Below are positions 18,396-64,000 of a stretch of DNA of 64,000 nt, piece by piece (within the stretch, counting starts at the first letter, position 1; every line of letters starts with the position of its first letter). The notes under the pieces were generated by a model. It ran no database searches. It was not told where the DNA came from and worked only from the letters and a program-made list of their open reading frames with translations. Location of the stretch: NCBI GenBank assembly GCA_964448465.1, contig CAYUVY010000001.1:25196-89195 (forward strand), given 5' to 3'. This DNA is from an uncultured Gammaproteobacteria bacterium (GTDB lineage: Bacteria; Patescibacteriota; Microgenomatia; UBA12405). The translations under genes and the position numbers were made by a program.

Positions 18396-18840
18396 ATTTT
18401 ATTGACCAATCGTAGGGAATTTCAGTATTATTTATTGGATCTAGTCTAATAATCTCCTCGGGATCATGGGGTAAAGTTGCGCAATTAGCTACTATAGCCA
18501 CAGGAGAGCTTATTCCTTTAAATCCATTCCAAACCCCAGTAGGAATTGTTACCAAACTATAGTTTTCGGAACCTAAAAATATTTCTTGGACTTCTCCTTT
18601 GGTCTTAGAATTTTCTCTTGGATCATACAAAACTAGCTTGATCATTCCTGAAACAACGGCATAATTTAAAGTCATCAATTTGTGCAAGTGCCAACCCTTA
18701 ACTACCCCAGGGTAAACAGTTGAAAAATATATTTCTCCAAACTTAATAAAATCAGGATCGTCTGATCTTAACATGGGGTAAATAGCCCCTCTTTCGTCCG
18801 GTCGCTTTGTTAATTGTTTAATCCTTACTCCTTCAATCAT
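18388..18840 (-). CDS. RmlC-like cupin nucleotide-sugar epimerase/isomerase (3,5-epimerase or FdtA/WxcM-like)
   Basis: 150 aa. ERGAIYPMLRSDDPDF...GEIYFSTVYPGVVKGWHLH is typical of dTDP/CDP-4-keto-6-deoxyhexose 3,5-epimerase-type cupins. Last gene of the CDP-sugar operon. Confidence 0.65.
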   Translation of the reverse strand: MIEGVRIKQLTKRPDERGAIYPMLRSDDPDFIKFGEIYFSTVYPGVVKGWHLHKLMTLNYAVVSGMIKLVLYDPRENSKTKGEVQEIFLGSENYSLVTIPTGVWNGFKGISSPVAIVANCATLPHDPEEIIRLDPINNTEIPYDWSIKFK

Positions 18841-19753
18841 AATTTTTTAAATAACTCTTAATGGTTAATTTTAAACCATCTTCAATTGCAGTGGTAGGTT
18901 CCCATCCTAGCATGGCCTTTGCTTTTGAAAAGTTACAGCTCAAGAATCTAACGTCTTTGGGTATAACATTCCCCCAGCTAACTATAGGTTTTTTCTTTAA
19001 GTACTTTTCAACCACAGCTACGATTTTTCTGATAGTTACTACTTTTCTATTACCGATCAGAAAAGACTCATATTTGGTATTACTTATACTTGATGCAAAC
19101 TTAATTGCTTTAAGATAAGCCATAACCACATCTCCCACATAAGTAAAACACAATTTTTGCCTACCATCAGACAAACCATACGTGGTGTTATTTATAGTAT
19201 TTATAATAATTTTCGGAACAACTTTGTCGTTGTCAGCCTCACCATACACATATATTGGCTTCAAAGTAATCCCTCTTATTAGACCTCTATCCACTTGGTA
19301 CTTAAAAATATTTTCAAAAGCAATCTTCAGAGCGGCATAGTAATTTAAAGGCTTAAGTATGGAGTTTTCGTTAATAGCTTTTGAGCTCAAAGCATATTCA
19401 AAACAAGTACCGGTATTAATAAAAGCCTTTACTTTTCCAACAATGCACCACTCTAACAATCTAGATGGTAAAACAAAGTTTGATTCAATCATCCGCATTT
19501 TTTCCTCGTAAGTACTCTCGTCTCGCACATAATCAGTTGCCATATGAATCAACACATCCACACCACCTAGTTCAAGTATCCTACGACAATCATCCAAATC
19601 TACAATTAGCTTAACCTTGCTGGATATGTCTCTAATTCTGTCAAATTTTGAGTTAGCACGAGCTAATAAAAATACTTCATAACGCAAATCAACCAACTTT
19701 CTAACCAAGTGACTTCCTACAAAGCCCGTGCCGCCAGTCAACAAAATTTTCAT
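18833..19753 (-). CDS. NAD(P)-dependent sugar epimerase/reductase (SDR), RfbJ/RfbS-like CDP-4-keto-3,6-dideoxyhexose reductase candidate
   Basis: MKILLTGGTGFVGSHLVRKL Rossmann motif and a YAALK YxxxK motif. About 300 aa. Sits directly downstream of the E1 gene. Confidence 0.65.
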   Translation of the reverse strand: MKILLTGGTGFVGSHLVRKLVDLRYEVFLLARANSKFDRIRDISSKVKLIVDLDDCRRILELGGVDVLIHMATDYVRDESTYEEKMRMIESNFVLPSRLLEWCIVGKVKAFINTGTCFEYALSSKAINENSILKPLNYYAALKIAFENIFKYQVDRGLIRGITLKPIYVYGEADNDKVVPKIIINTINNTTYGLSDGRQKLCFTYVGDVVMAYLKAIKFASSISNTKYESFLIGNRKVVTIRKIVAVVEKYLKKKPIVSWGNVIPKDVRFLSCNFSKAKAMLGWEPTTAIEDGLKLTIKSYLKNYD

Positions 19754-20985
19754 AAATATTTTGTCAAAAATTCTTGTGTGGTTTTTACTACATATTCTAT
19801 GTCTTCAACAGAAATACCTGGATAAACACCCAACCAAAAAGCATTATTCATAATCATATCGGCTTTTTCCATCAAACCCACTATTTTATATTTAGACTTG
19901 TGTTCCAAATAGGCCGGATGTCGCAGTAAGTTACCAGAAAATACATTACGAGTGCCTATCATGTGGTTTTCCAAATAGGATGTTAGCTCGTTGCGAGTAA
20001 AAGGAGCCTTTGGTTTAACTAATATGGGAAATCCAAAATAGGAGACATCTTCTTTTGGATTATTTTTTAACAACTTAAAGAATTTTTTATACTTTCCAAA
20101 AAATTCTTCTAACAAATTATAATTACGTTGCCTAATTTTTATAAAATTTGGCAATTTCCTCAATTGGGCTAATCCTATGGCTGCCTGGAAATCTGTAAGC
20201 TTTAAATTAAACCCTATCTCCGAATATATATATTTATGATCATAACCTTCGGGTAGTTCTCCAAGTTTCCAGCCAAATCTCTTGTTACAGGTGTTATCTT
20301 TGCCAGGAGCACACCAACAATCTCTTCCCCAATCTCTAAACTGGCGCATTTTTGTGTGCAATATAGCACTGTTAGTCACCACGGCGCCTCCCTCACCCAT
20401 AGTTATTTGATGTGCAGGGTAAAAGCTATAAGTAGCCATATCCCCAAAGGTTCCAAGCATCTTACCTTTATACTTTGAACCCAAAGCATCACAACAATCT
20501 TCGATTAACCATAAATTATACTTTTTACACAACTTTACAATTTTATCTATCTCAAAAGGCTTACCAAGAGTATGAGCCAACATTATCAACTTTGTTTTTT
20601 TTGTTATATTTTTTTCTATTTGGGAAGTATCAATATTTAGTGTGTCCAAAGAAGCATCAATAAAAATTGGTTTTAGTCCAAACATCAAGGCGGGGTTAAC
20701 CGTAGTGGGAAATGCCACTGCAGTGGTTATAAACTCATCTCCTGCTCTTAATCTTCTTTCTTTAAAAATACGAGAGGTCAAAGTGGCCAATGCCAGCAAA
20801 TTTGCCGAGGAACCAGAATTTACCAAAGAAACATGCCTAACCCCCAAAAACTTCTTAAATTCTGACTCAAACTCCAAAGCGAATCTTCCCTCAGTCCACC
20901 AACCATCTTTTGCTGCTTCAATTGCGTTATTTATTTCCGACTCATCAAAAACTTTCCCAGAAACTTGGATATATTTTCTATTCAT
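19750..20985 (-). CDS. rfbH: CDP-6-deoxy-D-xylo-4-hexulose 3-dehydrase (E1, DdhC/RfbH-type; DegT/DnrJ/EryC1 fold)
   Basis: SFYPAHQITMGEGG has His in place of the PLP-binding Lys, as in E1 and ColD. The Cys pattern DCC-x57-CWC-x7-C matches the E1 [2Fe-2S] motif Cx57CxCx7C as I remember it. Adjacent to rfbF and rfbG. Confidence 0.8.
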   Translation of the reverse strand: MNRKYIQVSGKVFDESEINNAIEAAKDGWWTEGRFALEFESEFKKFLGVRHVSLVNSGSSANLLALATLTSRIFKERRLRAGDEFITTAVAFPTTVNPALMFGLKPIFIDASLDTLNIDTSQIEKNITKKTKLIMLAHTLGKPFEIDKIVKLCKKYNLWLIEDCCDALGSKYKGKMLGTFGDMATYSFYPAHQITMGEGGAVVTNSAILHTKMRQFRDWGRDCWCAPGKDNTCNKRFGWKLGELPEGYDHKYIYSEIGFNLKLTDFQAAIGLAQLRKLPNFIKIRQRNYNLLEEFFGKYKKFFKLLKNNPKEDVSYFGFPILVKPKAPFTRNELTSYLENHMIGTRNVFSGNLLRHPAYLEHKSKYKIVGLMEKADMIMNNAFWLGVYPGISVEDIEYVVKTTQEFLTKYL

Positions 20986-21955
20986 TAAAATAAGTCTTGT
21001 ACCATTTATAAATTTTTTTAACTACTTTCTCATAAGTATACAATCTTTTCCAACCTAGCATTTTTTTAGCCTTTTCATCATCTAACTTTTGGTATGCTAA
21101 TTCGTTTTTTGCATTATCCAAAATACTATACTTCAATTTTTTACCCAAGACACTTTCTGATAATCTTATTAAATCAATTACACTAAGGGAGTCCTCTGAG
21201 CCAAAATTAAAAGCTTCACCTTTAATATTTTCGATCTTAGACCCCATCAACAAATAACCATTTACCACATCATCTACGTACAAATAATCCCTTACTTGTT
21301 TGCCGTTGCTCCTTAACTCTAATAGCTGATTTAGGCAAAAACTTTTCATAATTGCTGGTACTATCCTAGAAAAGTATAAATCACCTTCTCCATATATATT
21401 ACCAGCCCTAGCTATGGCAACAGGTAATTGATAGGTTTTCCAGTAAGTATGGGCAATTAAATCAGCACAACTCTTAGATACATCATAAGGATGATCGCCC
21501 TTTAGGGGGTCAGACTCCTTATATTTATCCCCAGACCTTAGTGGCCCATAGGCCTTGTCCGAGGTAACCACTACAATTGCTTTAATTCTAGGATAATTTC
21601 TGGCAGCCTCCAGTATATTAACTGTCCCCATTATATTAGTCTCTAGGCACTCTTTTGGGTTAACATAAGCCACACCCACAATTGGTTGAGCAGCTAAATG
21701 AAAAATATAGTCAATCTCGGCGCCAGTGATCAAATTAAATAAGCCATTGTAGTCTCTTACATCTAAATTTTCCAAAACCAATCTTGGAGAATGCATCTTT
21801 ATGAGGTCAAATTTTATTAAATTATCCTGCTTATAGGTACAAACCACGCTAGCCCCCAAACTTAGTAACTTTCTTACTAGGTTACTCCCCACAAAGCCGG
21901 TACCCCCTGTCACCAATACGTTCTTGTTAAGATACGCGTCCCTTAAAGTTCCCAT
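20978..21955 (-). CDS. rfbG: CDP-glucose 4,6-dehydratase-like SDR
   Basis: VLVTGGTGFVGSNLVRKL, TSDKAYG and YDVSK (YxxxK) motifs. Located between rfbF and rfbH. Confidence 0.7.
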   Translation of the reverse strand: MGTLRDAYLNKNVLVTGGTGFVGSNLVRKLLSLGASVVCTYKQDNLIKFDLIKMHSPRLVLENLDVRDYNGLFNLITGAEIDYIFHLAAQPIVGVAYVNPKECLETNIMGTVNILEAARNYPRIKAIVVVTSDKAYGPLRSGDKYKESDPLKGDHPYDVSKSCADLIAHTYWKTYQLPVAIARAGNIYGEGDLYFSRIVPAIMKSFCLNQLLELRSNGKQVRDYLYVDDVVNGYLLMGSKIENIKGEAFNFGSEDSLSVIDLIRLSESVLGKKLKYSILDNAKNELAYQKLDDEKAKKMLGWKRLYTYEKVVKKIYKWYKTYFNE

Positions 21956-22707
21956 ACCTTACCTTTCTCATCTACAATTTTATTTAAATCTTCAAGCTCT
22001 TTGTATGTGTCAACAGCATACCAAAAACCAGTATGCTTAAATATTGCCAACTGTCTATCTTTAGCCATTTTATCCAAGGATACAAAGTCCATTTCATCTT
22101 TAGAAAAATATTTTAAAGCTTTTCTCTTATAAACCATAAATCCAGCATTTGTCCAGTCTGACATTATGGGTTTTTCTTCAATTTGCACAACAACTCCCTT
22201 CTCATCAACATGAATCTTGCCGTATTTTGACCTAGGATGAGCACACAATACTGTACCAGCCAGTCCAGTCTTTTTGTGAAACTCGTGAAACTTTTTAAAA
22301 TCTACAGAAGCCAAGCCGTCAGCATAGCAAACCATAAAATCTTCGTCCTCCTTGGGAATATATTTGGCGCACATCAAAATTCTTTCTGCGGTTTTTGTAT
22401 AACTACCCGTAGCTAATAAGGTAACTTTAAAATTTAAGTTAAGCTTATTAAAATATTTTATTTTACCTGTTTTTAAGTTTAGCTGAAGGTCGTTATCTCG
22501 TTGTTTAAAGTTTAAAAAATATTCCTTTATCTGGTTACCCATTAACCCTGTTGTCAAAATAAAATCATTGTAACCATACTTCATAAAATGATTCATAATG
22601 TGCAACACTATCGGCTTCCCTGCAACTTCCACCATCGACTTAGGTTTGAATTGTGTTTCTTCTTTTAGTCTTGTACCCGTACCCCCACACAAAATAATTA
22701 CTTTCAT
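21943..22707 (-). CDS. rfbF: Glucose-1-phosphate cytidylyltransferase
   Basis: MKVIILCGGTGTRLKEETQFKPKSMVEVAGKPIVLHIMNHFMKYGYNDFIL is a near-textbook RfbF/DdhA N-terminus. 254 aa. Confidence 0.85.
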   Translation of the reverse strand: MKVIILCGGTGTRLKEETQFKPKSMVEVAGKPIVLHIMNHFMKYGYNDFILTTGLMGNQIKEYFLNFKQRDNDLQLNLKTGKIKYFNKLNLNFKVTLLATGSYTKTAERILMCAKYIPKEDEDFMVCYADGLASVDFKKFHEFHKKTGLAGTVLCAHPRSKYGKIHVDEKGVVVQIEEKPIMSDWTNAGFMVYKRKALKYFSKDEMDFVSLDKMAKDRQLAIFKHTGFWYAVDTYKELEDLNKIVDEKGKVWEL

Positions 22708-22743
22708 ATAAGTTTAGTCAACAAATTAGGAAATATTATAACA

Positions 22744-22770
22744 TTTACAATATCGAACACAATTATACTA
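22744..22770 (+). promoter_or_regulatory. Candidate sigma70-like promoter (TTTACA-15 bp-TATACT) in the 138-bp divergent intergenic region upstream of the GT4 at 22846
   Basis: Hexamers read directly from the sequence. This is an AT-rich context, so chance occurrence is likely. Confidence 0.15.
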
Positions 22771-22845
22771 TATTTGGCAATTTGACCACACGATTAAAGA
22801 TAGAATAGAAATGTTAAAATTGACCAATTAACTAGACAAGAGTTT

Positions 22846-28995: not shown

Positions 28996-29796
28996 ATGCC
29001 TCTTGTGGTAAAAGAAATTATCAGCATATATAAGTACAGAGAATTATTGTACCAGCTCACCCTGCGCGAAATAAAGTCCCGCTACAAACAGTCCATTCTT
29101 GGCTATTTTTGGGTTATTTTTAATCCCTTGGCTCAAATGATTGTCATGAGCTATGCCTTTTCCATTATTTTAAAAGTACCCACCAACGCCACCTCCAACA
29201 TTCCTTATTCTGTTTTTTTATTTACAGCTCTTTTACCTTGGAACCTGTTTGCTAATTCTTTAACTTCAGCCTCCAATTCCTTGGTTACTAATTCCGGTTT
29301 ACTTACAAAAATATATTTCCCTCGCACTATCCTACCTATTTCTACCATTCTCGCCAAAATCGTCGATTTTCTCTTTGCTAGCCTAATCTATATTATTTAT
29401 ATGCTTTGGTACCAAATACCCATAAATTTCAATGTACTCTGGATAATTCCAATATTTTTTATCCAATTAATTTTCACCACTGGTTTATCCTTGTTCCTTA
29501 GTGCTACCAATTTACTATATCGAGACATTCAATACCTCCTAGGCTTAATCTTAACGCTATGGATCTACATCACCCCCGTCTTTTACCCTGCCGACCTAAT
29601 TCCCGCCAAAGCCAGGTTTATCTTTCAATTTAATCCCATGGCCGTGATTATCAACGCCTACCGCCAAGTTATCCTAGCCGGTGGGAACCCCAATTTCACC
29701 AGTCTTTGGATAGCTCTAGTAGTCTCTGTTACTACACTAATTTTGGCCTTAGCTTATTTTAAACAGCAAGAAAAAACCTTTGCAGACAATGTTTAA
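28996..29796 (+). CDS. wzm: ABC-2 type polysaccharide/teichoic-acid exporter permease
   Basis: YKYRELLYQLTLREIKSRYKQSILGYFWVIFNPLAQM is a classic Wzm/TagG N-terminal signature. Six predicted TM segments. Confidence 0.8.
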   Translation: MPLVVKEIISIYKYRELLYQLTLREIKSRYKQSILGYFWVIFNPLAQMIVMSYAFSIILKVPTNATSNIPYSVFLFTALLPWNLFANSLTSASNSLVTNSGLLTKIYFPRTILPISTILAKIVDFLFASLIYIIYMLWYQIPINFNVLWIIPIFFIQLIFTTGLSLFLSATNLLYRDIQYLLGLILTLWIYITPVFYPADLIPAKARFIFQFNPMAVIINAYRQVILAGGNPNFTSLWIALVVSVTTLILALAYFKQQEKTFADNV

Positions 29797-30529
29797 TCCA
29801 ACCCCCATCATCCAATTTAAAAACGTAACCAAGAAGTTCTCCTTTAACAAGCAGAAAACCTTCAAAGAATTTATCCCGGCCCTACTAGGTCAGCAAGAAA
29901 CCAAAACTATGTTTACAGCTCTAGATAACATCAGCTTCGAAGTATATCCTGGTGAAACCGTAGGAATAATTGGCCCCAACGGTAGTGGCAAGTCTACTAT
30001 CTTAAAACTAATTGCCAACGTCACTAGTCCCACCTCGGGAGAAGTTATTGTCAACGGCCGAGTCTCGCCATTAATTGAACTGGGGGCGGGCTTTCATCCA
30101 GATCTAACTGGGCGCGAAAATATATTTTTAAACGGCAGCATTCTTGGCCTAACTCAAAAGGAAATAAAGCACAATTACAAAAGTATTGTCGACTTTGCCG
30201 AGCTTGCCGAATTTATTGACCAGCCAGTCAAGCACTACAGTTCTGGCATGTATATGCGCCTAGCCTTTGCTGTGGCTGTACACACTAACCCACAAATCCT
30301 CCTGGTCGACGAAATCCTAGCAGTAGGGGACTCCACCTACCAAGCCAAATGCTTTAAAAAAATGGAAGAGTTCAAAAAATCCGGCGTAACTATCATCTTC
30401 GTCTCCCATTCTTTATCTTCTATTAGAAATTTTTGTGATAAAACAATATCTCTTAGCAAAGCAACAATAAAATATCAAGGTAAGACAGCCGATGTCCTAA
30501 ACAAAACAACAAGTCATGAACAAAGTTAA
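29780..30529 (+). CDS. wzt: ABC transporter ATP-binding protein, short form (no C-terminal glycan-binding domain)
   Basis: Walker A GPNGSGKST, signature YSSGMYMRLAFA, and Walker B LLVDEILAVGD. Confidence 0.85.
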   Translation: MQTMFNPTPIIQFKNVTKKFSFNKQKTFKEFIPALLGQQETKTMFTALDNISFEVYPGETVGIIGPNGSGKSTILKLIANVTSPTSGEVIVNGRVSPLIELGAGFHPDLTGRENIFLNGSILGLTQKEIKHNYKSIVDFAELAEFIDQPVKHYSSGMYMRLAFAVAVHTNPQILLVDEILAVGDSTYQAKCFKKMEEFKKSGVTIIFVSHSLSSIRNFCDKTISLSKATIKYQGKTADVLNKTTSHEQS

Positions 30530-31940
30530 TATTGGCAATAGCTTGAAAATTAATCATATTAAAAACAGTAATCAGCTTAAGACCCCCTCCAAAGTTAATG
30601 TACAATTTACAACAATTTCCGACTTAAAAAGAATTATAAAAAAAATAAAGATTTCTAAGTATTTTAAGGTTATGAATTTTTTTAAAATATACGAGAATAA
30701 GAAATTAAATAATCAAGGAAATGCTGCAAAGCATAAAGCTTTAGTAGAAATTGAGTACTATTCAAAACCTGTTACTTTCAAAGTATGGCGTAAATATAAC
30801 AACATAAAGGGTATAATTTTGCACTTACTTCTTGGCGTATTCTTGCTTATACCAAGCTTATTCTACTTATTGGCAACAATCATCTACATTGTTTATTTCA
30901 CAATTTATGAACAATTAATGCGGGGTAAAAAAAGATTCCTAAACCTAAAACCAGAGGAATGTAGGCTAGACGGAATTAGCTTCATAATCCCCACTTGGAA
31001 CAAAAGAGACATGGTAGTTAAGTGCATTAAGCTGCTTGACCAAGCTATTGTTGCAGAAAATCAAGGACTAAATTGTGAAATAATTGTCGTCGACAATGGT
31101 TCAAAGGACGGAACTTATCAGGCTTTATTAAATTTATCTACTAAAACAAAACTGGAAATTATTAAAAACGAAATTAACTTGGGATATGCCAAGGGAATAA
31201 ACGAAGCGGTGGATAAATCAAAATATAATTATGTTTACCTCCTAAACAACGACATGGAGGTACAAAACGGCTTTTTGGCATCTTTAATATCTTTTGCTAA
31301 AAATAAAATTGACAAAAGTGAAAAATTTTTTGGCTTAGCGTCCCAAATATTTTTCTTTGACCCAAAGAAAAGAAGGGAGGAGTCAGGCAAAACTTATTGT
31401 CAGCCCAAAGCAGGCTTTATCAACATAGCCCATGTTGTTAGCAAGCAGAATTTGACTCAAAATTCTATTACGCTTTATCCGGGTGGCGGGTCATCGCTTA
31501 TTAATAAACATGTCTTCAACAAACTTGGACAGTATGATTATAAATCCTATACACCTCTTTACTGTGAGGACCTAGATCTTGGTTACTTAGCCTGGAAATA
31601 TGGCTATCCCTCTTATTTTATTTCCAAGTCACACGTCATCCATCACCACCAATCCTCTACTAAAAAGTTAAACAAGGACCCAACCTATTTTTTATACAAA
31701 AATCTATTAGTATTTATCTTAAAAAATTTTACTTCTCCAAAAGTAATCTTAAAACACACATTGCTTTTTGTTCCACAGCTTATTGTCAACACAAAATACA
31801 CCAGGTATGCACTTGAGACGATCAAAAACATTCACAATATTTTTGCATCTAGACTTAAACTTGCTCAATATCAACCAATGCACACAGATCAACAACTAGA
31901 AAATTTTATATTATTTGAAGCGATATATAAAGATGATTGA
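30516..31940 (+). CDS. Glycosyltransferase family 2 (GT2) with N-terminal extension of about 150 aa and a TM segment
   Basis: ISFIIPTWNKRDMVVKCIKLL...VDNGSKDGT and EDLDLGY motifs. A hydrophobic stretch HLLLGVFLLIPSLFYLLATIIYIVYF precedes the catalytic domain. Confidence 0.75.
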   Translation: MNKVNIGNSLKINHIKNSNQLKTPSKVNVQFTTISDLKRIIKKIKISKYFKVMNFFKIYENKKLNNQGNAAKHKALVEIEYYSKPVTFKVWRKYNNIKGIILHLLLGVFLLIPSLFYLLATIIYIVYFTIYEQLMRGKKRFLNLKPEECRLDGISFIIPTWNKRDMVVKCIKLLDQAIVAENQGLNCEIIVVDNGSKDGTYQALLNLSTKTKLEIIKNEINLGYAKGINEAVDKSKYNYVYLLNNDMEVQNGFLASLISFAKNKIDKSEKFFGLASQIFFFDPKKRREESGKTYCQPKAGFINIAHVVSKQNLTQNSITLYPGGGSSLINKHVFNKLGQYDYKSYTPLYCEDLDLGYLAWKYGYPSYFISKSHVIHHHQSSTKKLNKDPTYFLYKNLLVFILKNFTSPKVILKHTLLFVPQLIVNTKYTRYALETIKNIHNIFASRLKLAQYQPMHTDQQLENFILFEAIYKDD

Positions 31941-33153
31941 AAATAAAAAGATACTTTTAGTAACTGCCATCTCTCCAGTCCCCAAATCCAGTGGTGGTGC
32001 TGTTCGTATTTACAACACAATCAAAGAACTATCTAAACATTTTGACCTTCACCTAGTTATCTTCAAAGACTCTAGGTATAAATTTAGCCAAGAAGATACT
32101 AATTTTTTAACTTGCAACAGCAAGTCCTGGACTAGCTATAACGCTAATCCAAACAAAACGGAGCAAACATTTATTGACTTTAGCCAGCCCTACTGGTTTT
32201 CCGACTGGTATAGTCCAGAAGCCATTATAGGTATCAACCAAATTATCAAAAGGTACAATATACTTACCGTACACATTGAGTTAACACAATTATTATACTT
32301 GTACGATTATTTACCTGAACATATCTATAAAATATTTGTAGCCGAAGATATTTCTACTATCTCCTTTTTAAGAAGATTAGGCGAAATTAAGAGCCTAAAA
32401 ACGAAAATAATACATCTTTTTCGTTGGCTAGAAATATATTATTACGAAAAAAAGTATCTAAAAAAATATGATTTGGTAGCCTCAGTTTCTGAGTATGATA
32501 AAAAGATACTTCAAGACAGATTTAATCTTAAAAATGTGATTTGCATTCCAAATGGAATCGAAACTATAGATTTTCAAGAAATTAAAACAACTAAAAGGGA
32601 AATTCGACTTGGCTATTTTGGCTCATTTAGCCACCCACCCAACAAATACGCCTTTATTTATTTCTTAAACAAGATTGCCCCATTATTAGAAAAAAACAAA
32701 ATAAAATACACTTTTTACTTAGCTGGCAAAAATGATCCAGCAGAAGTGATTGATTTAGTAAACAAGTCAGAACTAAAAAACAAGAAGTCTATTCTCGATT
32801 TAGGATTTGTAAAAGAAGTTAAGGAGTTCTATAAAAATATAGACATACTAGTAACTCCCATATCTTCAGGCTCAGGATCAAGAATAAAAATACTAGAATC
32901 ACTCGGGCTTGGCACACCGGTAATTTCCTCCCAAATCGGAGCAGAAGGCAACAACATAGTCTCACCCTATCTAAAAATAGCTAACAACGAATCGGAATTT
33001 GTCGAACAAATAGTCTTAACTCACAAACAATTGCTAAACAAAAGCTTATTTAGCCACCAAACCAATCTGAAAACCCAAATTCAATCTCAACTCTGGTCAT
33101 CCATAATATCAACATACGCAAAAATTATTGTTAATATAAACATATATAAATAA
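31933..33153 (+). CDS. Glycosyltransferase family 4 (GT4)
   Basis: KILLVTAISPVPKSSGGAVRIYNTIKELSKH is a GT4 N-domain signature. The ATG at 31933 overlaps the upstream stop (ATGATTGA). The track start is a TTG at 31915. Confidence 0.7.
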   Translation: MIENKKILLVTAISPVPKSSGGAVRIYNTIKELSKHFDLHLVIFKDSRYKFSQEDTNFLTCNSKSWTSYNANPNKTEQTFIDFSQPYWFSDWYSPEAIIGINQIIKRYNILTVHIELTQLLYLYDYLPEHIYKIFVAEDISTISFLRRLGEIKSLKTKIIHLFRWLEIYYYEKKYLKKYDLVASVSEYDKKILQDRFNLKNVICIPNGIETIDFQEIKTTKREIRLGYFGSFSHPPNKYAFIYFLNKIAPLLEKNKIKYTFYLAGKNDPAEVIDLVNKSELKNKKSILDLGFVKEVKEFYKNIDILVTPISSGSGSRIKILESLGLGTPVISSQIGAEGNNIVSPYLKIANNESEFVEQIVLTHKQLLNKSLFSHQTNLKTQIQSQLWSSIISTYAKIIVNINIYK

Positions 33154-33154
33154 T

Positions 33155-33943
33155 GTGAAGCCCCTATATCCAATACCTTACGCTAACCATAATATTGATA
33201 ATCTTGCCTCCATTCTGGGCAAATGGCCCATTTATTGCCCGATTTGTGACAGTTTTTCATACATCAGCCATATCGATGCACAGAACCTCCGGGAGAGTTG
33301 TATTTGTCATCGCTGTAAATCTACCAACAGACAAAGACAATTGGCTATCGGCATATTGGAATTTCTAAAACTAAAAAAACTAAAAGACATATTTAAACTA
33401 GACATCAATATATACAACACCGAGACGGGTGGTGCTCTACACAATCTACTAAAAACACACCAAAATTATCAATCAAGCGAATACTTTGGACCAAAATATA
33501 AAAGTGGAGATATTATTAACAACACAATGAACCAGGATTTAATGGGGTTATCATTTAAAAACAACATCTTTGATCTTGTCTTATCAAGCGAAGTATTTGA
33601 ACATATTCCAGATCCATACAAAGCCCACACAGAAGTGCACCGAGTACTTAAAAAAGAAGGAGCACACATATTTACAGTACCCTTTTATCAAACCGGATAT
33701 ACTGATGAAAAAAGAGCCTTTGTTGACAGTAAGGGAAAACTTAAGCACCTACTACCTCCCCAATACCACCTTGACGGTATCAGACCAGACGAAGGCATTC
33801 TTGTTTACAACATATTCTCAATAGAGATGCTTGGTAAACTTGATAGTATTGGCTTAAAGACAGCATTGTATTTACTACATAAAATTAATTTAGGTATCCT
33901 GGGAAATAATTGTACTTTATTTATTGCAGTTAAAAACTCATAG
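33155..33943 (+). CDS. Class I SAM-dependent methyltransferase with N-terminal Cys4 zinc-ribbon
   Basis: CPICDS...CICHRC gives a CxxC-x20-CxC-xx-C motif. MTase motifs FDLVLSSEVFEHIPDP and KKEGAHIFTVPF. Confidence 0.6.
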   Translation: MKPLYPIPYANHNIDNLASILGKWPIYCPICDSFSYISHIDAQNLRESCICHRCKSTNRQRQLAIGILEFLKLKKLKDIFKLDINIYNTETGGALHNLLKTHQNYQSSEYFGPKYKSGDIINNTMNQDLMGLSFKNNIFDLVLSSEVFEHIPDPYKAHTEVHRVLKKEGAHIFTVPFYQTGYTDEKRAFVDSKGKLKHLLPPQYHLDGIRPDEGILVYNIFSIEMLGKLDSIGLKTALYLLHKINLGILGNNCTLFIAVKNS

Positions 33944-33990: not shown

Positions 33991-34797
33991 ATGATTTACG
34001 ATTGCTTCATGATTTACAACGAGCTTGAAATGTTAAAGATTAGACTTAACATACTCTCAAAATACGTCGATTATTTTGTAATAGTAGAGTCTACGCATAC
34101 TCACTCCGGTAAACCGAAGAAGCTGTATTTTAAAGAAAACAAAAACAAATTTAAGAAATTTTTAAACCAAATTGTGTATATAGTTGTAGATGATTTGAAC
34201 AACGCTCCTATAATAACAGACAAACCACCGTACGATAAAATAGAATTATTTCAATTAAATCCTTTAACCTGGTCAAGGGAGTTCTACCAAAGAAATTGCA
34301 TTACCAGAGGTCTAATAAACGCAAAAGATAGTGATCTTATCTTAATCGGAGATATAGATGAAATTCCAAAACCAGAAAAAATTAAATTAGTTAAATATTC
34401 ACAAAAACCTACTTGCTTTGAACAAGACTTTTATTATTACTTTCTAAACTGTCTTTCGAGCGAAAAATGGAGAAAGGGAACAAAAGGCATATATAAAAAA
34501 TTTCTCACTACTCCACAAGAAATAAGACATGTAGACTACAACAATTCACACTTACTCAAAGATGCTGGATGGCACTTTTCATATCTTGGTGGTAGGGAGC
34601 AAATAGTAAAAAAAATTGACTCATTTAGCCATCAAGAACTTAATAATATAGAAATAACAAATTTTAAAAGATTAAAATTCAACATTGATAATAATTTGGA
34701 TATATTTGACAGACCTTATACTTACAAAATTGTAAAGATTAATAACAAATACCCACACTACATTATTAATAATAAAAAATACTTAGTAAATTTATAA
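33991..34797 (+). CDS. Glycosyltransferase family 17-like (MGAT3/bisecting-GlcNAc-transferase family homolog)
   Basis: N-terminal signature MIYDCFMIYNELEMLKIRLNILSKYVDYFVIVESTHTHSGKPKKLYF matches the Glyco_transf_17 hallmark DxFxFxNExDxLxxRLxxLxxxVDxFVIVES...GxxKPL. Confidence 0.7.
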   Translation: MIYDCFMIYNELEMLKIRLNILSKYVDYFVIVESTHTHSGKPKKLYFKENKNKFKKFLNQIVYIVVDDLNNAPIITDKPPYDKIELFQLNPLTWSREFYQRNCITRGLINAKDSDLILIGDIDEIPKPEKIKLVKYSQKPTCFEQDFYYYFLNCLSSEKWRKGTKGIYKKFLTTPQEIRHVDYNNSHLLKDAGWHFSYLGGREQIVKKIDSFSHQELNNIEITNFKRLKFNIDNNLDIFDRPYTYKIVKINNKYPHYIINNKKYLVNL

Positions 34798-35038
34798 AAA
34801 AGAAAACAAAAATTTCTAATATAATATTAGACCTAAGGAGCGAAATAATTCTAAACAGAAAATTAATCTCAAAATTACACCACGAAAAAGAACAAGAAAT
34901 ATCAAGTATTAGAAATGAATTGTTTGAAACTAAACAGACGTTGTCTAGAATATATAATTCAAAAACATGGAAAATCTCTACTGCGTATCAGGGTATTAAA
35001 TCCAAAATATCAAAAATATTTAATAGATAAACAAGCGA

Positions 35039-36769
35039 TTAATTTGTTCTAGTACAGCGGTAGATCAATGTATTCTCAAACAACGCTAGGCTTTGAAAAT
35101 ACCAAGCAGATTTATCTAACTCAAGCTTCTTGCAAACTCGATTTCGGTTCCAATAAATTATTTCTAAATTTAACCACTGCTTATCGCCAATTACCAATAT
35201 ACTCTTCTCAGCATCAACTCTCTTCAATAGCAGTTTAAAATTCTCTGAGACCAGCTTGCTGTTAATCAATTCAACATATCTTGTTTCATCAACGGCATTT
35301 ACTATATTTGCACCTTTATAACTAGCCAAATATGCGAAAAAAGATTCCGGTCCACGAAAAGCAACTACAACCGTTTCCTTCTCTCCAATTATCGACTCGT
35401 ATCCATTTACCATATCGTCTAGCCGATCTTTCCCCAATAATTTTAGACTATCTATATATGTTTTTACAAAAAAAGGCCTATTGGCAGTATTTTGTAACCA
35501 AATCAAGTTAGGTCGCCAACCAAAATCAGTTGAAACCGAAGTAAAACACAAGATCACAAAAACAACGAATAGCAGCCACCACCTCTTTAATCTAAGGCTG
35601 TAATTAAGTTTTAATGCGTATACTAAATACAACCAATAAACTGCAGCAAAAGTTAACAAATAGCGCGAGTAACCCATTAGCACCGACCAAATCAAATAAC
35701 AAAAAATAAATATAATATATTTCCACTTTCTTTTAATTAGTAACAAATACCACGATAGCAAGTAGGGGAATGCCCAAAAACACGCAAAAAAGTACTTAGC
35801 TTCAGTTTTTACAATACCTTCTCCAAATCTTTGAGTAAATTGAGCCATTACCGGCCATGCCAATATCTCTTGCCAATTTTGTGGCCCCCACCTCGTGTCT
35901 TTAAAACTAACCAATGCATAAAATGGTGACTTAAAAAATCCATTGTATAAAAATGAAATTGGGTTTCCAGTATTTATGTATGATGCTCCAAAAAATATAA
36001 ACACAAACAATACAATTAATATTACCCAAAACCATTTAATTTCTCTTTTATTTTGCCAGACAAAGTATAAAAATATTGGCATTAAGACAATCCCAGCAGA
36101 TTGTTTGATTATCATTGATAGCAAACCCACAATAACTCCCAATGTTCGATTACCTGTCTTAACAACAAGCTGATAAAACATTTCCAAACCCAAAACAAGC
36201 GTCAAAAAATCTACCATAAATGTTGTGTGGGTTGCCATCAGGTGAGGAACAAAAAATATGTATATAAAAATAATGTCCCACCATATCTTTTTATTATTAT
36301 TTTTCTCTACTTGCTTTAGTCTTAAATTAATCGAGGCGTACCATGCAATCAACAAAATACCATTAAATAGTAAACTTAACCTTATCCCAAAAACCTTTAA
36401 TAATAACGGATATCCCAACTGGGCAACAGGATAAATATATGAACCAAAATCTAGGGGCAAAAAATTTACTGCCTGCCAAATATTTTTTGCATACCATCCA
36501 GCCTCCAAGTGGAAAGCAAAATCATCATAAACAGGATAATAAATAGGGAAGCGACTCAATAAGACTACCCACAGAGGCACGGTCCACCACCAATCGATTA
36601 AATAAAATTTAATTTGCTTGTCCTTATTATTTCTCCACAAAACATACCAAATTATTATCCACAAAATCAATAATCCCCATCCAAAATAATCACTAATATT
36701 AAAAACCGAAATCACGGCCAGCATCACCACCCCTGCCAACAAAAAACTAATATAAATCAATCTTGCCAT
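35039..36769 (-). CDS. Large polytopic membrane protein with C-terminal soluble domain; possible GT-C-like glycosyltransferase
   Basis: 576 aa with more than 12 hydrophobic segments. A YPVYDDFAFH acidic motif is near the N-terminus. The C-terminal 150 aa are hydrophilic. Confidence 0.45.
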   Translation of the reverse strand: MARLIYISFLLAGVVMLAVISVFNISDYFGWGLLILWIIIWYVLWRNNKDKQIKFYLIDWWWTVPLWVVLLSRFPIYYPVYDDFAFHLEAGWYAKNIWQAVNFLPLDFGSYIYPVAQLGYPLLLKVFGIRLSLLFNGILLIAWYASINLRLKQVEKNNNKKIWWDIIFIYIFFVPHLMATHTTFMVDFLTLVLGLEMFYQLVVKTGNRTLGVIVGLLSMIIKQSAGIVLMPIFLYFVWQNKREIKWFWVILIVLFVFIFFGASYINTGNPISFLYNGFFKSPFYALVSFKDTRWGPQNWQEILAWPVMAQFTQRFGEGIVKTEAKYFFACFWAFPYLLSWYLLLIKRKWKYIIFIFCYLIWSVLMGYSRYLLTFAAVYWLYLVYALKLNYSLRLKRWWLLFVVFVILCFTSVSTDFGWRPNLIWLQNTANRPFFVKTYIDSLKLLGKDRLDDMVNGYESIIGEKETVVVAFRGPESFFAYLASYKGANIVNAVDETRYVELINSKLVSENFKLLLKRVDAEKSILVIGDKQWLNLEIIYWNRNRVCKKLELDKSAWYFQSLALFENTLIYRCTRTN

Positions 36770-36798: not shown

Positions 36799-38187
36799 AT
36801 GCTTTTCAGCTCGAATATATTTTTACTAATATTCCTTCCCGCAATCCTTCTTTTGTATTTCTCGGTCTCCAAAATATTTAAAAATCCAAATAATTTTCTA
36901 AATTTAATACTTATCTTTTTTAGCCTATTTTTTTACTATTGGGGCAGTGGCAAATTTATTCTAATCTTCTTCTGTTCCATCATGTTAAATTTTCTTTTAG
37001 GCCAATTAATTGCAAAAAAAACAAACTTAAAAAAATATTTTTTATTTCTTGGCATTACTGGCAACATTTCCTTACTTATATATTTCAAATATTTTCAATT
37101 TTTTTATCAGCAAACATCTTTTTTACTTCATCTTGGTCTACCACCACTAAATCCTATATTTCTCCCCATTGGTATTTCCTTTTATTCTTTTATGGCCATT
37201 TCCTATCTTGTAGATGTTTACCAACAAAAACAAAAACCTGCAAACCTCCTCAGCTTTACACTGTATATTAGTTTGTTCCCTCATTTAGTTGCTGGACCAA
37301 TTGTCCGCTATCAGGAAATTGCCGACAGTATTAAGAAACGAAGTCCCAACACAGATCAGTTTTTCAATGGACTATGGCGATTTTCCCTGGGACTTGGTAA
37401 AAAAGTAATTATTGCCAATTCCGTAGGACAGCTTGCTGATAAAGTTTTTAGCCTCCCGTTAAACGAAATTGGCTCGCTACTCGCAATTTTGGGAGTACTT
37501 GCTTATACAATTCAAATCTATTTCGATTTTTCTGGTTACTCCGATATGGCGATAGGTCTTGCCAGTTTCTTTGGTTTTACTTTTCCTGAAAATTTCAATC
37601 ATCCTTACCGTGCTGTTTCCATCACTGACTTTTGGCGTCGTTGGCACATGTCTCTATCCCGATTTTTTCGTGACTATCTGTATATACCCCTAGGTGGTAG
37701 TCGTACAGGATCTGCCAGAACCTATTTCAACCTACTTGTTGTCTTTATTCTCTGTGGTCTTTGGCATGGTGCAGCTTGGACCTTTGTAGCCTGGGGTTTA
37801 TACCACGGATTGTTACTAACCATCGAAAGAATTGCTAAGAACAAATTTAATTTTGAACCAAGTGGCATAATATTTCAGTTATTTACTTTCTTACTGGTTT
37901 CTATTGGCTGGATAATATTTCGTTCACCGAACCTTACCTTTGCATTATCTTACGTAAAAAATATATTTTCGTTTACTAACACCATACCTGAGTTTTACAC
38001 ACTTCGATATTTTGTACCCAACAACATTGCTTTCTTTTTAGCGCTTGGCTTGTTACTTTCATTCATACCAGCAACCAAACCAAAAAACGTTGTCATTTGC
38101 GGACTTGTCTCCATATTTATACTAATACTTTCACTTGCCTATCTATCCAAAACCTCATTTACTCCTTTTATATATTTTCAATTTTAA
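36799..38187 (+). CDS. MBOAT-family membrane O-acyltransferase (AlgI/DltB-like)
   Basis: WRRWHMSLSRFFRDYLYIPLGG and FPHLVAGPIVRY are hallmark MBOAT/AlgI motifs. The conserved His is in GLWHGAAW. Confidence 0.85.
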   Translation: MLFSSNIFLLIFLPAILLLYFSVSKIFKNPNNFLNLILIFFSLFFYYWGSGKFILIFFCSIMLNFLLGQLIAKKTNLKKYFLFLGITGNISLLIYFKYFQFFYQQTSFLLHLGLPPLNPIFLPIGISFYSFMAISYLVDVYQQKQKPANLLSFTLYISLFPHLVAGPIVRYQEIADSIKKRSPNTDQFFNGLWRFSLGLGKKVIIANSVGQLADKVFSLPLNEIGSLLAILGVLAYTIQIYFDFSGYSDMAIGLASFFGFTFPENFNHPYRAVSITDFWRRWHMSLSRFFRDYLYIPLGGSRTGSARTYFNLLVVFILCGLWHGAAWTFVAWGLYHGLLLTIERIAKNKFNFEPSGIIFQLFTFLLVSIGWIIFRSPNLTFALSYVKNIFSFTNTIPEFYTLRYFVPNNIAFFLALGLLLSFIPATKPKNVVICGLVSIFILILSLAYLSKTSFTPFIYFQF

Positions 38188-39395
38188 TGACTGCCTTTTC
38201 CTCTTTAATGTTTTGGCACAACATAAAAGTTATCTTTTTAACGGTTATCTTCGGGCTTATTATCTTAAAGATACTTAACAAATATCTTAACCAAAAGAGA
38301 ATTTTTATAGGGTTATTTTTTGTTCTATTACTTATTCCATTTGTTCAAACTAAAACAAACCTCATTCAGTATCGCCCCTTAGAAGAAAATCGCAAAAAAT
38401 TAACCCTCCCTACCGGTAACCCTGTTATTGAAATTTTCAACAACCAAAAAACATACACCTTGGCTTATGAAAAATACTTCAACGATAACTATGGTCTGCG
38501 AGATTTATTTATTCGTGTAAAAAACCAAATCGACTACTCACTATTTAGGGTATCTGACGAAGTATTAATAGGAAAAGATAATTGGCTTTTTTACAAAAGT
38601 GTTGTTGAGAAGGAACAAGTATATATGGAACAGCAAAGCAATACACAATTATTAGCCATACAAGACAAAATGATTTCATTGAATAACTATTTTAAAAAGA
38701 GGGGTGTGTTGTTTGTGGTAATGCCAATACCTTTAAAAAACTCTATATATCCAGAGTTGTATATTAATAGAACAACAAACAGACCTAGTCCAACAAAATT
38801 CGAACGATTTATTGCATTTCTCCAAACACACCCTGAAATTAAATCTATAGACGCAAGATCTATTTTGCTTAACAATAAAGATAAATACCAACTTTTTTAT
38901 AAAACAGATTTTCATTGGACAGATACTGCAGCATATTTAGTCAACAAAGATACTGTTGAATCAATAAATAAATGGGTACACGGAACAACCAAGTGGAGCT
39001 ACTCACTTCAAACCCAAGAAGATAGTAGTTTTACAGGTGGACAAACTGATTCACTTGCAACACTTGTCTCACCTAGAGAAGTGGCAATTCATGTAATAAA
39101 CTCACCAAAAGGCTCTACACCTGACCCTAAAACACCAAAACCTTTCTTATACTACTTTAAATCTTCACTTACAAATCAGAAGTTATTGCCAAAAACCTTG
39201 CTTATTGGCAATTCATACTTTTTAAACATGCTTAACACTGGTTTTGTTGATCACTTTGATGAATTTTTGATGATCCATGGTAATGACATGGATAAAATAC
39301 CAGAATCAATCCCTAAAGATGTAAAAGTGGTAATATTTCAAATGATAGAAGTAGACCTGTTAAAAAATTTTTTGTTCAGTAAATCTAACACATAA
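38187..39395 (+). CDS. AlgJ/AlgX/DltD-like SGNH-type O-acyltransferase partner (N-terminal membrane anchor)
   Basis: N-terminal TM helix, then the KTDFHWTDTAAY motif (DxHW is typical of the AlgJ/AlgX family). Immediately downstream of the MBOAT gene, with the ATG overlapping its stop (TAATG). Confidence 0.55.
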   Translation: MTAFSSLMFWHNIKVIFLTVIFGLIILKILNKYLNQKRIFIGLFFVLLLIPFVQTKTNLIQYRPLEENRKKLTLPTGNPVIEIFNNQKTYTLAYEKYFNDNYGLRDLFIRVKNQIDYSLFRVSDEVLIGKDNWLFYKSVVEKEQVYMEQQSNTQLLAIQDKMISLNNYFKKRGVLFVVMPIPLKNSIYPELYINRTTNRPSPTKFERFIAFLQTHPEIKSIDARSILLNNKDKYQLFYKTDFHWTDTAAYLVNKDTVESINKWVHGTTKWSYSLQTQEDSSFTGGQTDSLATLVSPREVAIHVINSPKGSTPDPKTPKPFLYYFKSSLTNQKLLPKTLLIGNSYFLNMLNTGFVDHFDEFLMIHGNDMDKIPESIPKDVKVVIFQMIEVDLLKNFLFSKSNT

Positions 39396-42721: not shown

Positions 42722-43276
42722 TCAAAAACTCCTATCCTTTATTTTTCTCGCCGGAACACCAACAACCACCGAGTATCGTTCTGTAGATTTGGTGACAATT
42801 GAGCCAGCTCCCACAACCGTACCTTTTGAAATAGTAACTCCCGGCATAACCACAACATTCGCCGCTATCCACACATTATCTTCAATAATGATTGGTTTTC
42901 TCAGTATAGGTTGGAACAAAACTGCAACTTTATTGTTCTCAATTTGATGTTCGCCCGAGGAGATAACAACATTAGGACCAATGAGAACATTGTCCCCAAT
43001 ACTAACAGCACCTATACCATTTATATATGTATTCGAATTACATGCAAAATTATTACCAATACTAATGTTTTTAGTAAATATAAAGATTACTCCTGGCTGT
43101 ACAAACGCCATACCTTTTATACTATGAGAAAATATCTTTAAATATAAATATCTTAATATATAACCTACGGATCCGGGTAAATATTTTACAAAAAAATATA
43201 TGTCCGACTCGATTTCGCTAACTAAAATATCTTTAAGAGAATAGGCATTAAGTTTCTTGAGGATAAAAGATATCAT
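42722..43276 (-). CDS. Hexapeptide-repeat (left-handed beta-helix) sugar O-acetyltransferase
   Basis: Repeating [LIV]GxxxxI pattern: IGDNVLIGPNVVISSGEHQIE...IIEDNVWIAANVVVMPGVTISKGTVVGAGSIVTKS. Confidence 0.75.
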   Translation of the reverse strand: MISFILKKLNAYSLKDILVSEIESDIYFFVKYLPGSVGYILRYLYLKIFSHSIKGMAFVQPGVIFIFTKNISIGNNFACNSNTYINGIGAVSIGDNVLIGPNVVISSGEHQIENNKVAVLFQPILRKPIIIEDNVWIAANVVVMPGVTISKGTVVGAGSIVTKSTERYSVVVGVPARKIKDRSF

Positions 43277-62604: not shown

Positions 62605-63640
62605 GGTAGCTATTTTTTACGATTGGCTTACTCGTTGGGGCGGAGCCGAACAGGTGCTACTCGACCTACTAAAACTATTTCCACAAGCCGAACTTATCAC
62701 TACAATTTATGACCCAACAAAAACTAGTTGGCTACCTAAAGGTCACAAAATAATTACCACTCCGTTATCTCACCCTAGCCTAGAGAAATTTCAAGGTTTA
62801 CTTTCCCCATTTTATCCAATTTTTTTGGAAAAGATTGACACCCGCTCTTATGACTTGGTTATAAGTTTAAGTTCCGTCTTTGGTCATTGCTTTTTAACTC
62901 AACCACAAACCAAATATATTCACTACTGCCTGACACCCAATCGTCATCTTTATCAAAAAAACAGGTTTAAACTATACCAACAGATAGATCAAATATTTGC
63001 CCAAAGACCTGATTATGTCCTTGCCACTAGTGTAGAAGTTGCCAAAAGAATTAAAAAATATCACCATCGCGACAGTCAAGTAATTTACCCAGGTATAGAT
63101 TCCAACTTTTTCAAACCAAATAAAAATATTAAAAAACAAAAACAATACTTAATAGTTTCAAGGTTAGTTCCGTATAAAAACATAGATCTTGCTATCCAGG
63201 CCTGTGGCCAACTAAACAAAAAGCTAATTATTGTTGGACAAGGAAGACTGGCCACATATCTAAAATCTCTTGCCACTAATTACAAAAATATATACTTTAA
63301 ATCCGACGTCCAGCCCGCAGAATTAAAAAAACTTTATCAACAATCTATCGCGCTTTTGGCTCCTCAAATTGAGGACTTTGGTCTAGCTATTGTCGAATCT
63401 CAAGCCTGTGGGACACCAGTTATTAGCTTAGCCCAAGGTGGAGCGCTAGAAACTGTAGAACACCAGCAAACTGGCTACCTTTATCCAGATTCAGACATTA
63501 ATAGTTTAAAAGAAGCTATTTTAAATTTTGAAAGATTAAAACTAAACTCAAAAATAATTCGCAACAATTCACTAAGATTCTCCAAACATATATTCATGCT
63601 AAAATTTAGACAATATCTAAACCAATGCTTAAAACCTTAG
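62579..63640 (+). CDS. Glycosyltransferase family 4 (GT4)
   Basis: EDFGLAIVESQACGTPVISLAQGGALETV. Confidence 0.8.
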   Translation: MTTSFSKLKVAIFYDWLTRWGGAEQVLLDLLKLFPQAELITTIYDPTKTSWLPKGHKIITTPLSHPSLEKFQGLLSPFYPIFLEKIDTRSYDLVISLSSVFGHCFLTQPQTKYIHYCLTPNRHLYQKNRFKLYQQIDQIFAQRPDYVLATSVEVAKRIKKYHHRDSQVIYPGIDSNFFKPNKNIKKQKQYLIVSRLVPYKNIDLAIQACGQLNKKLIIVGQGRLATYLKSLATNYKNIYFKSDVQPAELKKLYQQSIALLAPQIEDFGLAIVESQACGTPVISLAQGGALETVEHQQTGYLYPDSDINSLKEAILNFERLKLNSKIIRNNSLRFSKHIFMLKFRQYLNQCLKP

Positions 63641-64000
63641 ACACAATAATTTTTGAAACTTTTAAAAGAACTGTAGACATTCTGGGAGGAATTTTTTTAA
63701 TGATTCTTTTCTCACCCATTATTTTGGTTATCAGTCTTTTGGTTAAATTTACTTCCAAAGGCCCTATCTTTTTTAGTCAAATTAGAGTAGGCAAAGACAG
63801 TAAACCTTTTAAGATGTTCAAGTTTCGTACCATGTATACCGGAGACAACGACCTACGCCTTAAAAAATATCCGGAATTGTACAAAAAATACAAAAAGAAC
63901 GGCTGGAAACTATCTTTAAGAGAAGATCCACGACTTACCCAGATTGGTAAAATTATCCGCGCATTATCTCTTGATGAATTTCCTCAGTTTTACAATGTTC
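63625..64000 (+). CDS. Polyprenyl-phosphate hexose-1-phosphate transferase, small PglC/WbaP-C-terminal type (bacterial sugar transferase family); 3' end outside window
   Basis: Own translation from ATG 63625: MLKTLDTIIFETFKRTVDILGGIFLMILFSPIILVISLLVKFTSKGPIFFSQIRVGKDSKPFKMFKFRTMYTG... The KFRTM and GPIFF.Q.R.G motifs are hallmarks of the Bac_transf family. It is absent from the supplied track, presumably because no stop lies inside the window. Confidence 0.7.
   Translation, partial: MLKTLDTIIFETFKRTVDILGGIFLMILFSPIILVISLLVKFTSKGPIFFSQIRVGKDSKPFKMFKFRTMYTGDNDLRLKKYPELYKKYKKNGWKLSLREDPRLTQIGKIIRALSLDEFPQFYNV

Follow-up and report, generated by a model that had tools for sequence, protein, structure and literature searches.

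We examined a 64,000-bp stretch of DNA (contig CAYUVY010000001.1 of assembly GCA_964448465.1, positions 25,196 to 89,195 of the forward strand; GTDB lineage Patescibacteriota, Microgenomatia), referred to here as the window. The subject of this work is a gene of glycosyltransferase (GT) family 17 (GT17) and the apparently noncoding DNA that follows it. An earlier note, made from the sequence alone, had described the gene as an MGAT3-like GT17 member in a bacterial glycan island with a large gap at its 3′ end. The features of the gene are as follows.

33991..34797, + strand: GT17 open reading frame (ORF) in the form found in the window (A6 allele), 268 amino acids, from the translation and a match to PF04724
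34270..34272, + strand: codon W94 (TGG), changed to TAG by G34271A, a null allele in a sister population
34351..34359, + strand: DxD motif, D121-I122-D123 within GDIDEIP, predicted from sequence and structural model to bind metal and nucleotide sugar
34774..34779, + strand: polymorphic poly(A) tract, counted directly, with six A residues (A6) in the window, causing a frameshift, and seven (A7) in the intact allele
34780..35030, + strand: out-of-frame remainder of the GT17 gene (the "gap" of the earlier note), encoding residues 264 to 346 of the intact protein, with its stop codon at 35028-35030

The ORF begins with ATG and contains the exact peptide quoted in the earlier note. Its start is backed by the conserved MIYDCF N terminus of homologues. 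Rather than giving no significant match, the product matched PF04724 (Glyco_transf_17) with an E value of 1.5e-30 (106.9 bits against a cutoff of 26) over residues 2 to 245, corresponding to profile positions 75 to 307 of 348. The result was the same for the 346-amino-acid form described below, and all of more than 1,000 database homologues carry the domain; a search of the protein against NCBIfam returned no meaningful family. An alignment of 27 homologues showed conservation of the N-terminal hallmark (D4, C5, F6, E11, L15, R18, D27, V30, V32, E33, T37, and K43) and, further on, of GD[IV]DEIP, GWHF (residues 193 to 196), S211, H214-Q215-E216, and D237. Within the DxD segment, D121, D123, E124, I125, and P126 are invariant, and the invariant acidic and histidine candidates are E97, E124, H195, H214, E216, and D237. 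The hallmark is, as claimed, reproduced almost residue for residue when the bacterial GT17 consensus is the reference, but not when human MGAT3 is. BLASTP with the catalytic region of MGAT3, a comparison that serves as a lead only, gave 27% identity over 130 amino acids (E = 1e-12). In this comparison the hallmark and the DxD segment (GDIDEIP) align with their MGAT3 counterparts, the latter with DDADEIP. We concluded that, by sequence, fold (see below), and motif alike, the locus is a genuine member of bacterial GT17, and that it adds one member to a large, known, and biochemically uncharacterized bacterial branch of the family.

The earlier note placed a 240-bp gap, the largest noncoding stretch in the window, after the gene. 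There is indeed no ORF of at least 50 amino acids on either strand from 34798 to 35038 (241 bp), and this is the largest internal ORF-free stretch; the next largest, 138 bp at 22708-22845, is a divergent promoter region. (An apparent ORF-free stretch of 360 bp at the window end is part of a Bac_transf gene that the edge cuts off.) However, the 241 bp are not noncoding, but encode the C-terminal tail of GT17. The third frame stays open from 34767, ahead of the GT17 stop, until the TAA at 35028-35030. Its product is the exact C terminus of the best database match, P0001, a 346-amino-acid protein that is 100% identical to the window ORF. The nearest homologues (42 to 60% identity over the full alignment) have 337 to 359 amino acids and an alignable tail. 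Two Logan contigs, L001 and L002, equal the window over 3,447 and 2,735 bp except for one base: they have A7 where the window has A6. The A7 allele extends the gene to 35030, for a product of 346 amino acids, 78 more than the window ORF. Its end lies 8 bp from the stop codon of the convergent gene at 35039-36769; hence, there is no true intergenic region here. The window ORF consists of a complete GT-A catalytic domain followed by six out-of-frame residues (YLVNL) and a stop. We concluded that the "gap" is the 3′ end of the GT17 gene, which the loss of a single A in an A7 tract has put out of frame. In relatives the tail is in frame, which marks A6 as the derived state. Users of this metagenome-assembled genome (MAG) would obtain a wrong gene model (268 rather than 346 amino acids) followed by a false gap that looks regulatory. 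Scans of the complete window for Rfam families and tRNAs gave no matches, leaving no known RNA in the "gap"; between 33800 and 35300, a terminator scan found no terminator-like hairpin, and the promoter-like matches were AT-rich noise.

The full-length protein might still be made from the A6 allele by a −1 ribosomal or transcriptional slip on the A run that brings the tail back into frame, or the tail might be translated separately from a noncanonical start after an AGGAG at 34837-34841. Runs of A decoded by tRNA-Lys are slippery sites, which offers a precedent for the slip, and the AGGAG is followed 7 nt on by an in-frame ATT inside the tail frame. However, A6 is shorter than the tracts at which transcriptional slippage is efficient, and downstream of it there is no stimulatory structure or terminator-like hairpin. 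The tail frame contains no ATG or GTG, only a TTG 36 codons before its end, and the intact allele has the AGGAG too, simply as part of the codons for L-R-S. We consider both routes very improbable.

Alleles in natural populations

We gathered allele-bearing contigs from independent short-read assemblies by exact-protein look-ups of the GT17 ORF and its neighbors. The two tract lengths were found in the following sources.

A6 (tail-less): SRR13287426, SRR14092389, SRR14092378, SRR14092380, SRR14092385, and an NCBI contig of 113 kb
A7 (intact): SRR14092393, SRR13287425, SRR14092385, SRR31757421, and a 94%-identical relative in SRR32548948

The identical 268-amino-acid product was called on four independent contigs. 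Run SRR14092385 appears in both lists: contig L098 stops 14 nt beyond the A7 tract, and contig L101 starts 3 nt ahead of the A6 tract. Such ends are the signature of a de Bruijn bubble, and both alleles were therefore present in one sample. Contig ends also gather within ~90 nt of the tract in two more runs. As a separate observation, contigs L002, L092, and L093, from three different runs, all end exactly at 35116, just inside the 3′ end of the convergent gene, which suggests another recurrent assembly break or variant.

Single-base indels in homopolymers are the commonest assembly error, and the window differs from L001 and L002 by exactly one A. The A6 tract could thus be a miscall in a gene that is intact and does not vary. 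However, A6 was assembled independently in five short-read runs, as was A7. Among the A/T tracts of at least 6 nt in regions covered by contigs, only 1 of 80 varies (376 observations), and it is the tract at 34774-34779. The other 79 (23 of at least 7 nt and 56 of 6 nt) gave 368 observations and not one length difference; they include an A8 run at 34608, within the catalytic domain and 166 bp upstream of the variable tract, that is identical in 11 of 11 contigs. General homopolymer error was rejected as the cause of the frameshift on the same 79 invariant tracts, and an assembly artifact is effectively excluded. We concluded that the A6 deletion is a real variant that coexists with A7 on otherwise identical haplotypes, both in independent metagenomes and within one run.

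A second disruption of the gene occurs in a sister population. Contigs L099 (SRR31757421) and L100 (SRR31757420) carry G34271A, and gene callers report fragments of 93 and 111 amino acids on them. The affected residue, W94, is conserved in at least 90% of aligned homologues. Across ~6.8 kb and ~10 near-identical contigs there are three variable sites, two of which disrupt GT17.

Another GT gene in the window, of family GT4 (49998-51081, + strand), is split over three frames (170, 103, and 102 amino acids). All independent contigs share its first break, whereas the second, a missing G at 50813 that gives SFV* instead of SFGIVFAEAWARGKPVVG, is polymorphic. Between 50615 and 50750, contigs L087 and L088 are mosaic, and the clustering of substitutions there, together with compensating indels, suggests recombination. 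The pseudogene state of this GT4 gene is fixed, and additional frameshifts in it are polymorphic.

The GT17 gene might likewise be a decaying pseudogene, with A6 and the W94 nonsense allele (W94*) both null, the enzyme no longer contributing, and the locus on its way to being lost. Two independent disruptions among so few variable sites, and the state of the neighboring GT4 gene, argue for this. Against it, the intact allele persists, at a comparable frequency among runs and also in the 94%-identical relative, and the A6 product retains its catalytic domain in full. Moreover, the out-of-frame tail has gathered no extra mutations; its DNA is 100% identical in A6 and A7 contigs. Decay is a possible account, but an unlikely one. 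Three GT17 alleles (intact, tail-less, and nonsense) together with a polymorphic GT4 pseudogene, on near-identical haplotypes, point to active diversification or erosion of a surface glycan in a population of the candidate phyla radiation (CPR), a group with almost unknown cell-surface biology.

Predicted fold and C-terminal tail

The earlier note had proposed structure prediction as a check for GT-A features, and the prediction bore the assignment out. An AlphaFold2 model built on the 27-homologue alignment has a mean pLDDT (predicted local distance difference test) of 93.7, a predicted template modeling (TM) score of 0.85, and a GT-A fold: its core alternates strands and helices in a single Rossmann-like unit of the GT-A type, and the DxD motif directly follows a strand (residues 116 to 121). 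Foldseek against the PDB returned GT-A glycosyltransferases only, with weak scores (best E = 2.5e-5; TM score, ≤0.38); the top fold neighbors include CHSY3, PmHS2, SunS, KfiA, MGAT2, and EXTL2. Sequence searches of the PDB, with the single sequence and with a profile, matched no chain and thus no GT17 structure, consistent with the published statement that GT17 lacks a representative structure (PMC7185993). Predicted viral structures (BFVD) were much closer, the best matches being annotated "Glycosyl transferase, family 17" (E = 6e-25 to 1e-21; TM score, 0.78 to 0.89 by target length). Since the family of the cancer-relevant MGAT3 has no solved structure, the compact, soluble bacterial forms of ~260 amino acids, for which the model is very confident and the invariant residues stand out, are practical first targets for work on structure and mechanism.

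The intact protein comprises a catalytic domain of ~262 residues and a tail of ~84 residues. No Pfam family matches residues 263 to 346. In the model, the tail forms a 46-residue helix (277 to 322) and a terminal helix (325 to 345), both with a pLDDT of ~90. It is strongly basic, with 20 K and R against 7 D and E (net charge, +13). The tails of homologues begin with N-x-x-L-R-x-E-I, continue with a helical stretch of variable length, and end in an S[KR]x[WY][KRQ] motif (SKTWK in this protein) followed by aromatic and basic residues. A helical tail with this ending is limited to a subclade that includes the orthologue in "Candidatus (Ca.) Shapirobacteria," whereas most GT17 relatives have 250 to 300 amino acids and no tail. 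Natural tail-less GT17 proteins of 250 to 263 amino acids stop at the equivalents of residues 270 to 277; therefore, the 268-amino-acid product keeps the whole catalytic domain. We also considered whether the end motif is a common targeting module and rejected this, as it was found in no other window ORF and, among 907 ORFs of 80 related loci, only in the GT17 orthologue.

The surrounding glycan island

The earlier note's placement of the gene in a glycan island was borne out, as the whole 64-kb window is full of glycan genes, with an ABC exporter (Wzm/Wzt), ~25 GTs, and an initiating phosphoglycosyl transferase. The features nearest to GT17, and the initiating enzyme, are as follows.

28996..30529, + strand: Wzm (ABC-2 permease, PF01061) and Wzt (ABC ATPase, PF00005), a glycan exporter at the head of the gene run that holds GT17
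30516..33943, + strand: GT2, GT4, and Methyltransf_11 genes (Pfam), immediately upstream of GT17
35039..36769, − strand: ORF for a 576-amino-acid multipass membrane protein, convergent to GT17
63625..64000, + strand: initiating phosphoglycosyl transferase (Bac_transf, PF02397; E = 2.8e-31), running off the window end

The same-strand run is thus Wzm, Wzt, GT2, GT4, methyltransferase, and GT17. Beyond the convergent gene lie genes for an MBOAT protein, an AlgX-like SGNH protein, a methyltransferase, and a GT2, and elsewhere in the window there are ~14 GT2 genes, ~10 GT4 genes, GT-C-like membrane proteins, and genes of deoxy-amino-sugar and GDP-sugar pathways. The adjacent permease and ATPase, the GTs, and the initiating phosphoglycosyl transferase are what marks an ABC-transporter-dependent cluster. 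The order Wzm-Wzt-GT2-GT4-GT17, with the convergent membrane protein, is kept in a Ca. Shapirobacteria MAG (locus L003), with identities of 70% for Wzm, 65% for Wzt, 63% for the membrane protein, and 58% for GT17. Taken with the GC content given below, this suggests a host of the Microgenomates type within Patescibacteria, probably a relative of Shapirobacteria. The 576-amino-acid protein has no Pfam match at E values up to 0.1; its homologue at the same position in L003 is 62.6% identical. It may represent a new GT-C-like or polymerase/ligase-like family that partners this GT17 subclade.

Several other features of the window were recorded. The MBOAT and AlgX-like SGNH genes (36799-39395, + strand) adjoin with overlapping stop and start codons, a pair typical of polysaccharide O-acetylation. 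Five consecutive genes at 2333-10311 (+ strand) encode products of 507 to 574 amino acids, of which two have weak PMT/PMT_2 (GT-C) matches, one has a subthreshold match to DUF7649, and two have none; the set resembles an array of paralogous GT-C-like membrane glycosyltransferases. A B12-binding radical S-adenosylmethionine enzyme encoded amid GT2 genes (13940-15457, + strand) may be a C-methyltransferase or a sugar-modifying enzyme. An operon at 18388-22707 (− strand) has a gene content typical of a dTDP-3-amino-3,6-dideoxyhexose pathway, as it encodes an FdtA/WxcM-like isomerase, an epimerase/reductase, a DegT aminotransferase, a 4,6-dehydratase, and a nucleotidyltransferase. The window also encodes hexapeptide acyltransferases, at 42722-43276 and 54590-55186. 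The window has a GC content of 31 to 41%. Most genes lie on the + strand, yet each 2-kb bin shows a negative GC skew for that strand (−0.06 to −0.26); codon or amino acid bias could account for this, as could gene orientations that relate to the replication strand in an unusual way.

Proposed function and comparison with known systems

We think it probable, taking the evidence together, that the locus encodes a cytoplasmic GT17 enzyme of GT-A fold, 346 amino acids long when intact, whose tail is severed by the real A6 variant and which has the glycan and tethering roles set out here. The enzyme would bind a nucleotide sugar, possibly a uridine diphosphate-linked N-acetylhexosamine, through the DxD motif and a divalent metal. 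By family analogy its mechanism would be inverting; GT17 is classed as an inverting family without the xED aspartate (PMC7185993). Most likely, it adds one residue, at the cytoplasmic face of the membrane, to a polyprenyl-phosphate-linked glycan before ABC export. The Bac_transf enzyme of the island would initiate this glycan, and the neighboring Wzm/Wzt transporter would export it. The tail is most likely a tether or oligomerization element, by analogy with other enzymes considered below, and would hold or oligomerize the enzyme at the membrane or at an assembly complex. The A6 product would then be catalytically intact but untethered or mislocalized, and probably hypomorphic, whereas W94* would give no enzyme.

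Several points weigh against this account. Literature searches found no biochemically characterized bacterial GT17, which leaves the proposed donor, acceptor, and linkage as inferences. Of 80 GT17 loci, only 11 have Wzt within 8 kb. The best heptad register of the tail has hydrophobic residues at 8 of 13 a/d positions, an imperfect pattern, and the terminal helix is moderately amphipathic, with a hydrophobic moment of 0.33; these values are too modest to establish membrane anchoring or a coiled coil. The tail may be dispensable, as many GT17 homologues do without one. Finally, alleles were read from assembled contigs, which do not give within-sample frequencies.

The A7 tract could instead make the gene a contingency locus, at which slipped-strand mispairing switches reversibly between tailed (tethered) and tail-less (soluble) isoforms as a bet-hedge against phages or hosts. 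The gene does contain a simple-sequence tract within its ORF whose length varies within a population, as phase-variable genes do. Identical haplotypes carry both lengths, in different runs of the same studies and also inside a single run. The tract is the only variable one of the 80, while the longer A8 tract in the catalytic domain never varies; it sits exactly at the junction of domain and tail, and the short form matches natural tail-less enzymes. The neighboring GT4 gene is frameshift polymorphic as well. However, only two lengths were seen, and seven A residues are few for a classical contingency tract. The A run is absent at this position in the Shapirobacteria orthologue, though kept in the 94%-identical relative, and A runs arise by default in a Lys/Asn-rich sequence of a 33% GC genome, the window having 52 of at least 7 nt. 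W94*, a plain loss of function, occurs as well, and no reversion was observed in the assemblies. Literature searches on phase variation in Patescibacteria found nothing useful. We regard a contingency locus as doubtful, and somewhat more doubtful still the fuller proposal that the tract is a selected switch between a long tethered and a free short GT17, remodeling a branch of the exported glycan in a clonal CPR population. If true, it would be the first contingency-type glycan switch in CPR and would act through enzyme localization rather than on/off, for example, in phage escape or in modulating attachment to hosts. In the view that we favor, there is no dedicated switch; the gene serves a dispensable decoration of the surface glycan, and its alleles are standing variation that changes or abolishes function.

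The closest known systems are other GT17 proteins. The description of bacterial members in the earlier note as sparsely characterized is right as to biochemistry, but they are not scarce: a HMMER scan found 8,771 clusters (at 50% identity) at E values up to 1e-3 and 1,305 at E values up to 1e-30, with relatives in at least 523 species genomes of many phyla. The uncharacterized bacterial, phage, and giant-virus proteins share the single-domain architecture seen here, at 35 to 65% identity. They number thousands, across Patescibacteria, Bacteroidota, Proteobacteria, Nitrospirota, Verrucomicrobiota, and other phyla, and are often automatically annotated as [quoted passage not shown] Models of the phage proteins superpose on this protein with TM scores of 0.78 to 0.89. 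Unlike these relatives, the gene described here is polymorphic for loss of the tail. We also observed GT17 domains twice per protein in giant proteins of 1,000 to 2,250 amino acids (database matches P0125 to P0135) and, in BFVD, in proteins of tailed phages, a Gordonia phage, and giant viruses; from their presence in phages and giant viruses, the family appears to be widely mobilized by viruses.

The founding member of the family, MGAT3 (GnT-III; EC 2.4.1.144), has the same catalytic domain (PF04724). MGAT3 is a type II Golgi membrane protein that adds N-acetylglucosamine in β-1,4 linkage to the core β-mannose of N-glycans. Unlike MGAT3, the protein described here has no N-terminal anchor or stem: profile positions 1 to 74 are unmatched, and MIYDCF opens the catalytic core. 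It is bacterial and, as read here, cytoplasmic, with no N-glycan core available as an acceptor, and has a basic helical C-terminal tail instead. The gene thus is not an MGAT3 orthologue, a bisecting N-glycan acceptor is implausible in a bacterial Wzm/Wzt cluster, and nothing at this locus supports an acceptor like that of bisecting N-acetylglucosamine.

For the tail, enzymes from other pathways offer parallels. WbdD and WbbB are coiled-coil enzymes of ABC-transporter-dependent O-antigen pathways. The protein described here resembles them in being a glycan enzyme with an extended helix of variable length, encoded beside Wzm/Wzt, but its helix has only ~46 residues, homology is not expected, and no chain-terminating activity was identified. 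A ruler function for the helix is pure speculation. In the α-1,3-fucosyltransferase of Helicobacter pylori, a variable heptad region links to amphipathic C-terminal helices that anchor the enzyme to the membrane (PMC4202792). The H. pylori α-1,3/4-fucosyltransferases FutA and FutB are soluble-type GTs without a transmembrane segment, and they serve as an analogy of working for the tail only, as they have a GT-B fold, belong to family GT10, and have no sequence relationship to this GT17. Linker length varies among GT17 homologues, but the tail here has imperfect heptads and only a moderate hydrophobic moment.

For the alleles, FutA and FutB are again of interest, as their expression also varies through homopolymer slippage. 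The lipo-oligosaccharide and capsule glycosyltransferase genes of Neisseria, Haemophilus, and Campylobacter are phase-variable homopolymer contingency loci. Like them, the GT17 gene is a glycan GT gene with a homopolymer of which both lengths occur in one population. Unlike them, it has a tract of seven A residues with two states, loses its tail rather than its catalytic domain, and does not keep the tract in orthologues.

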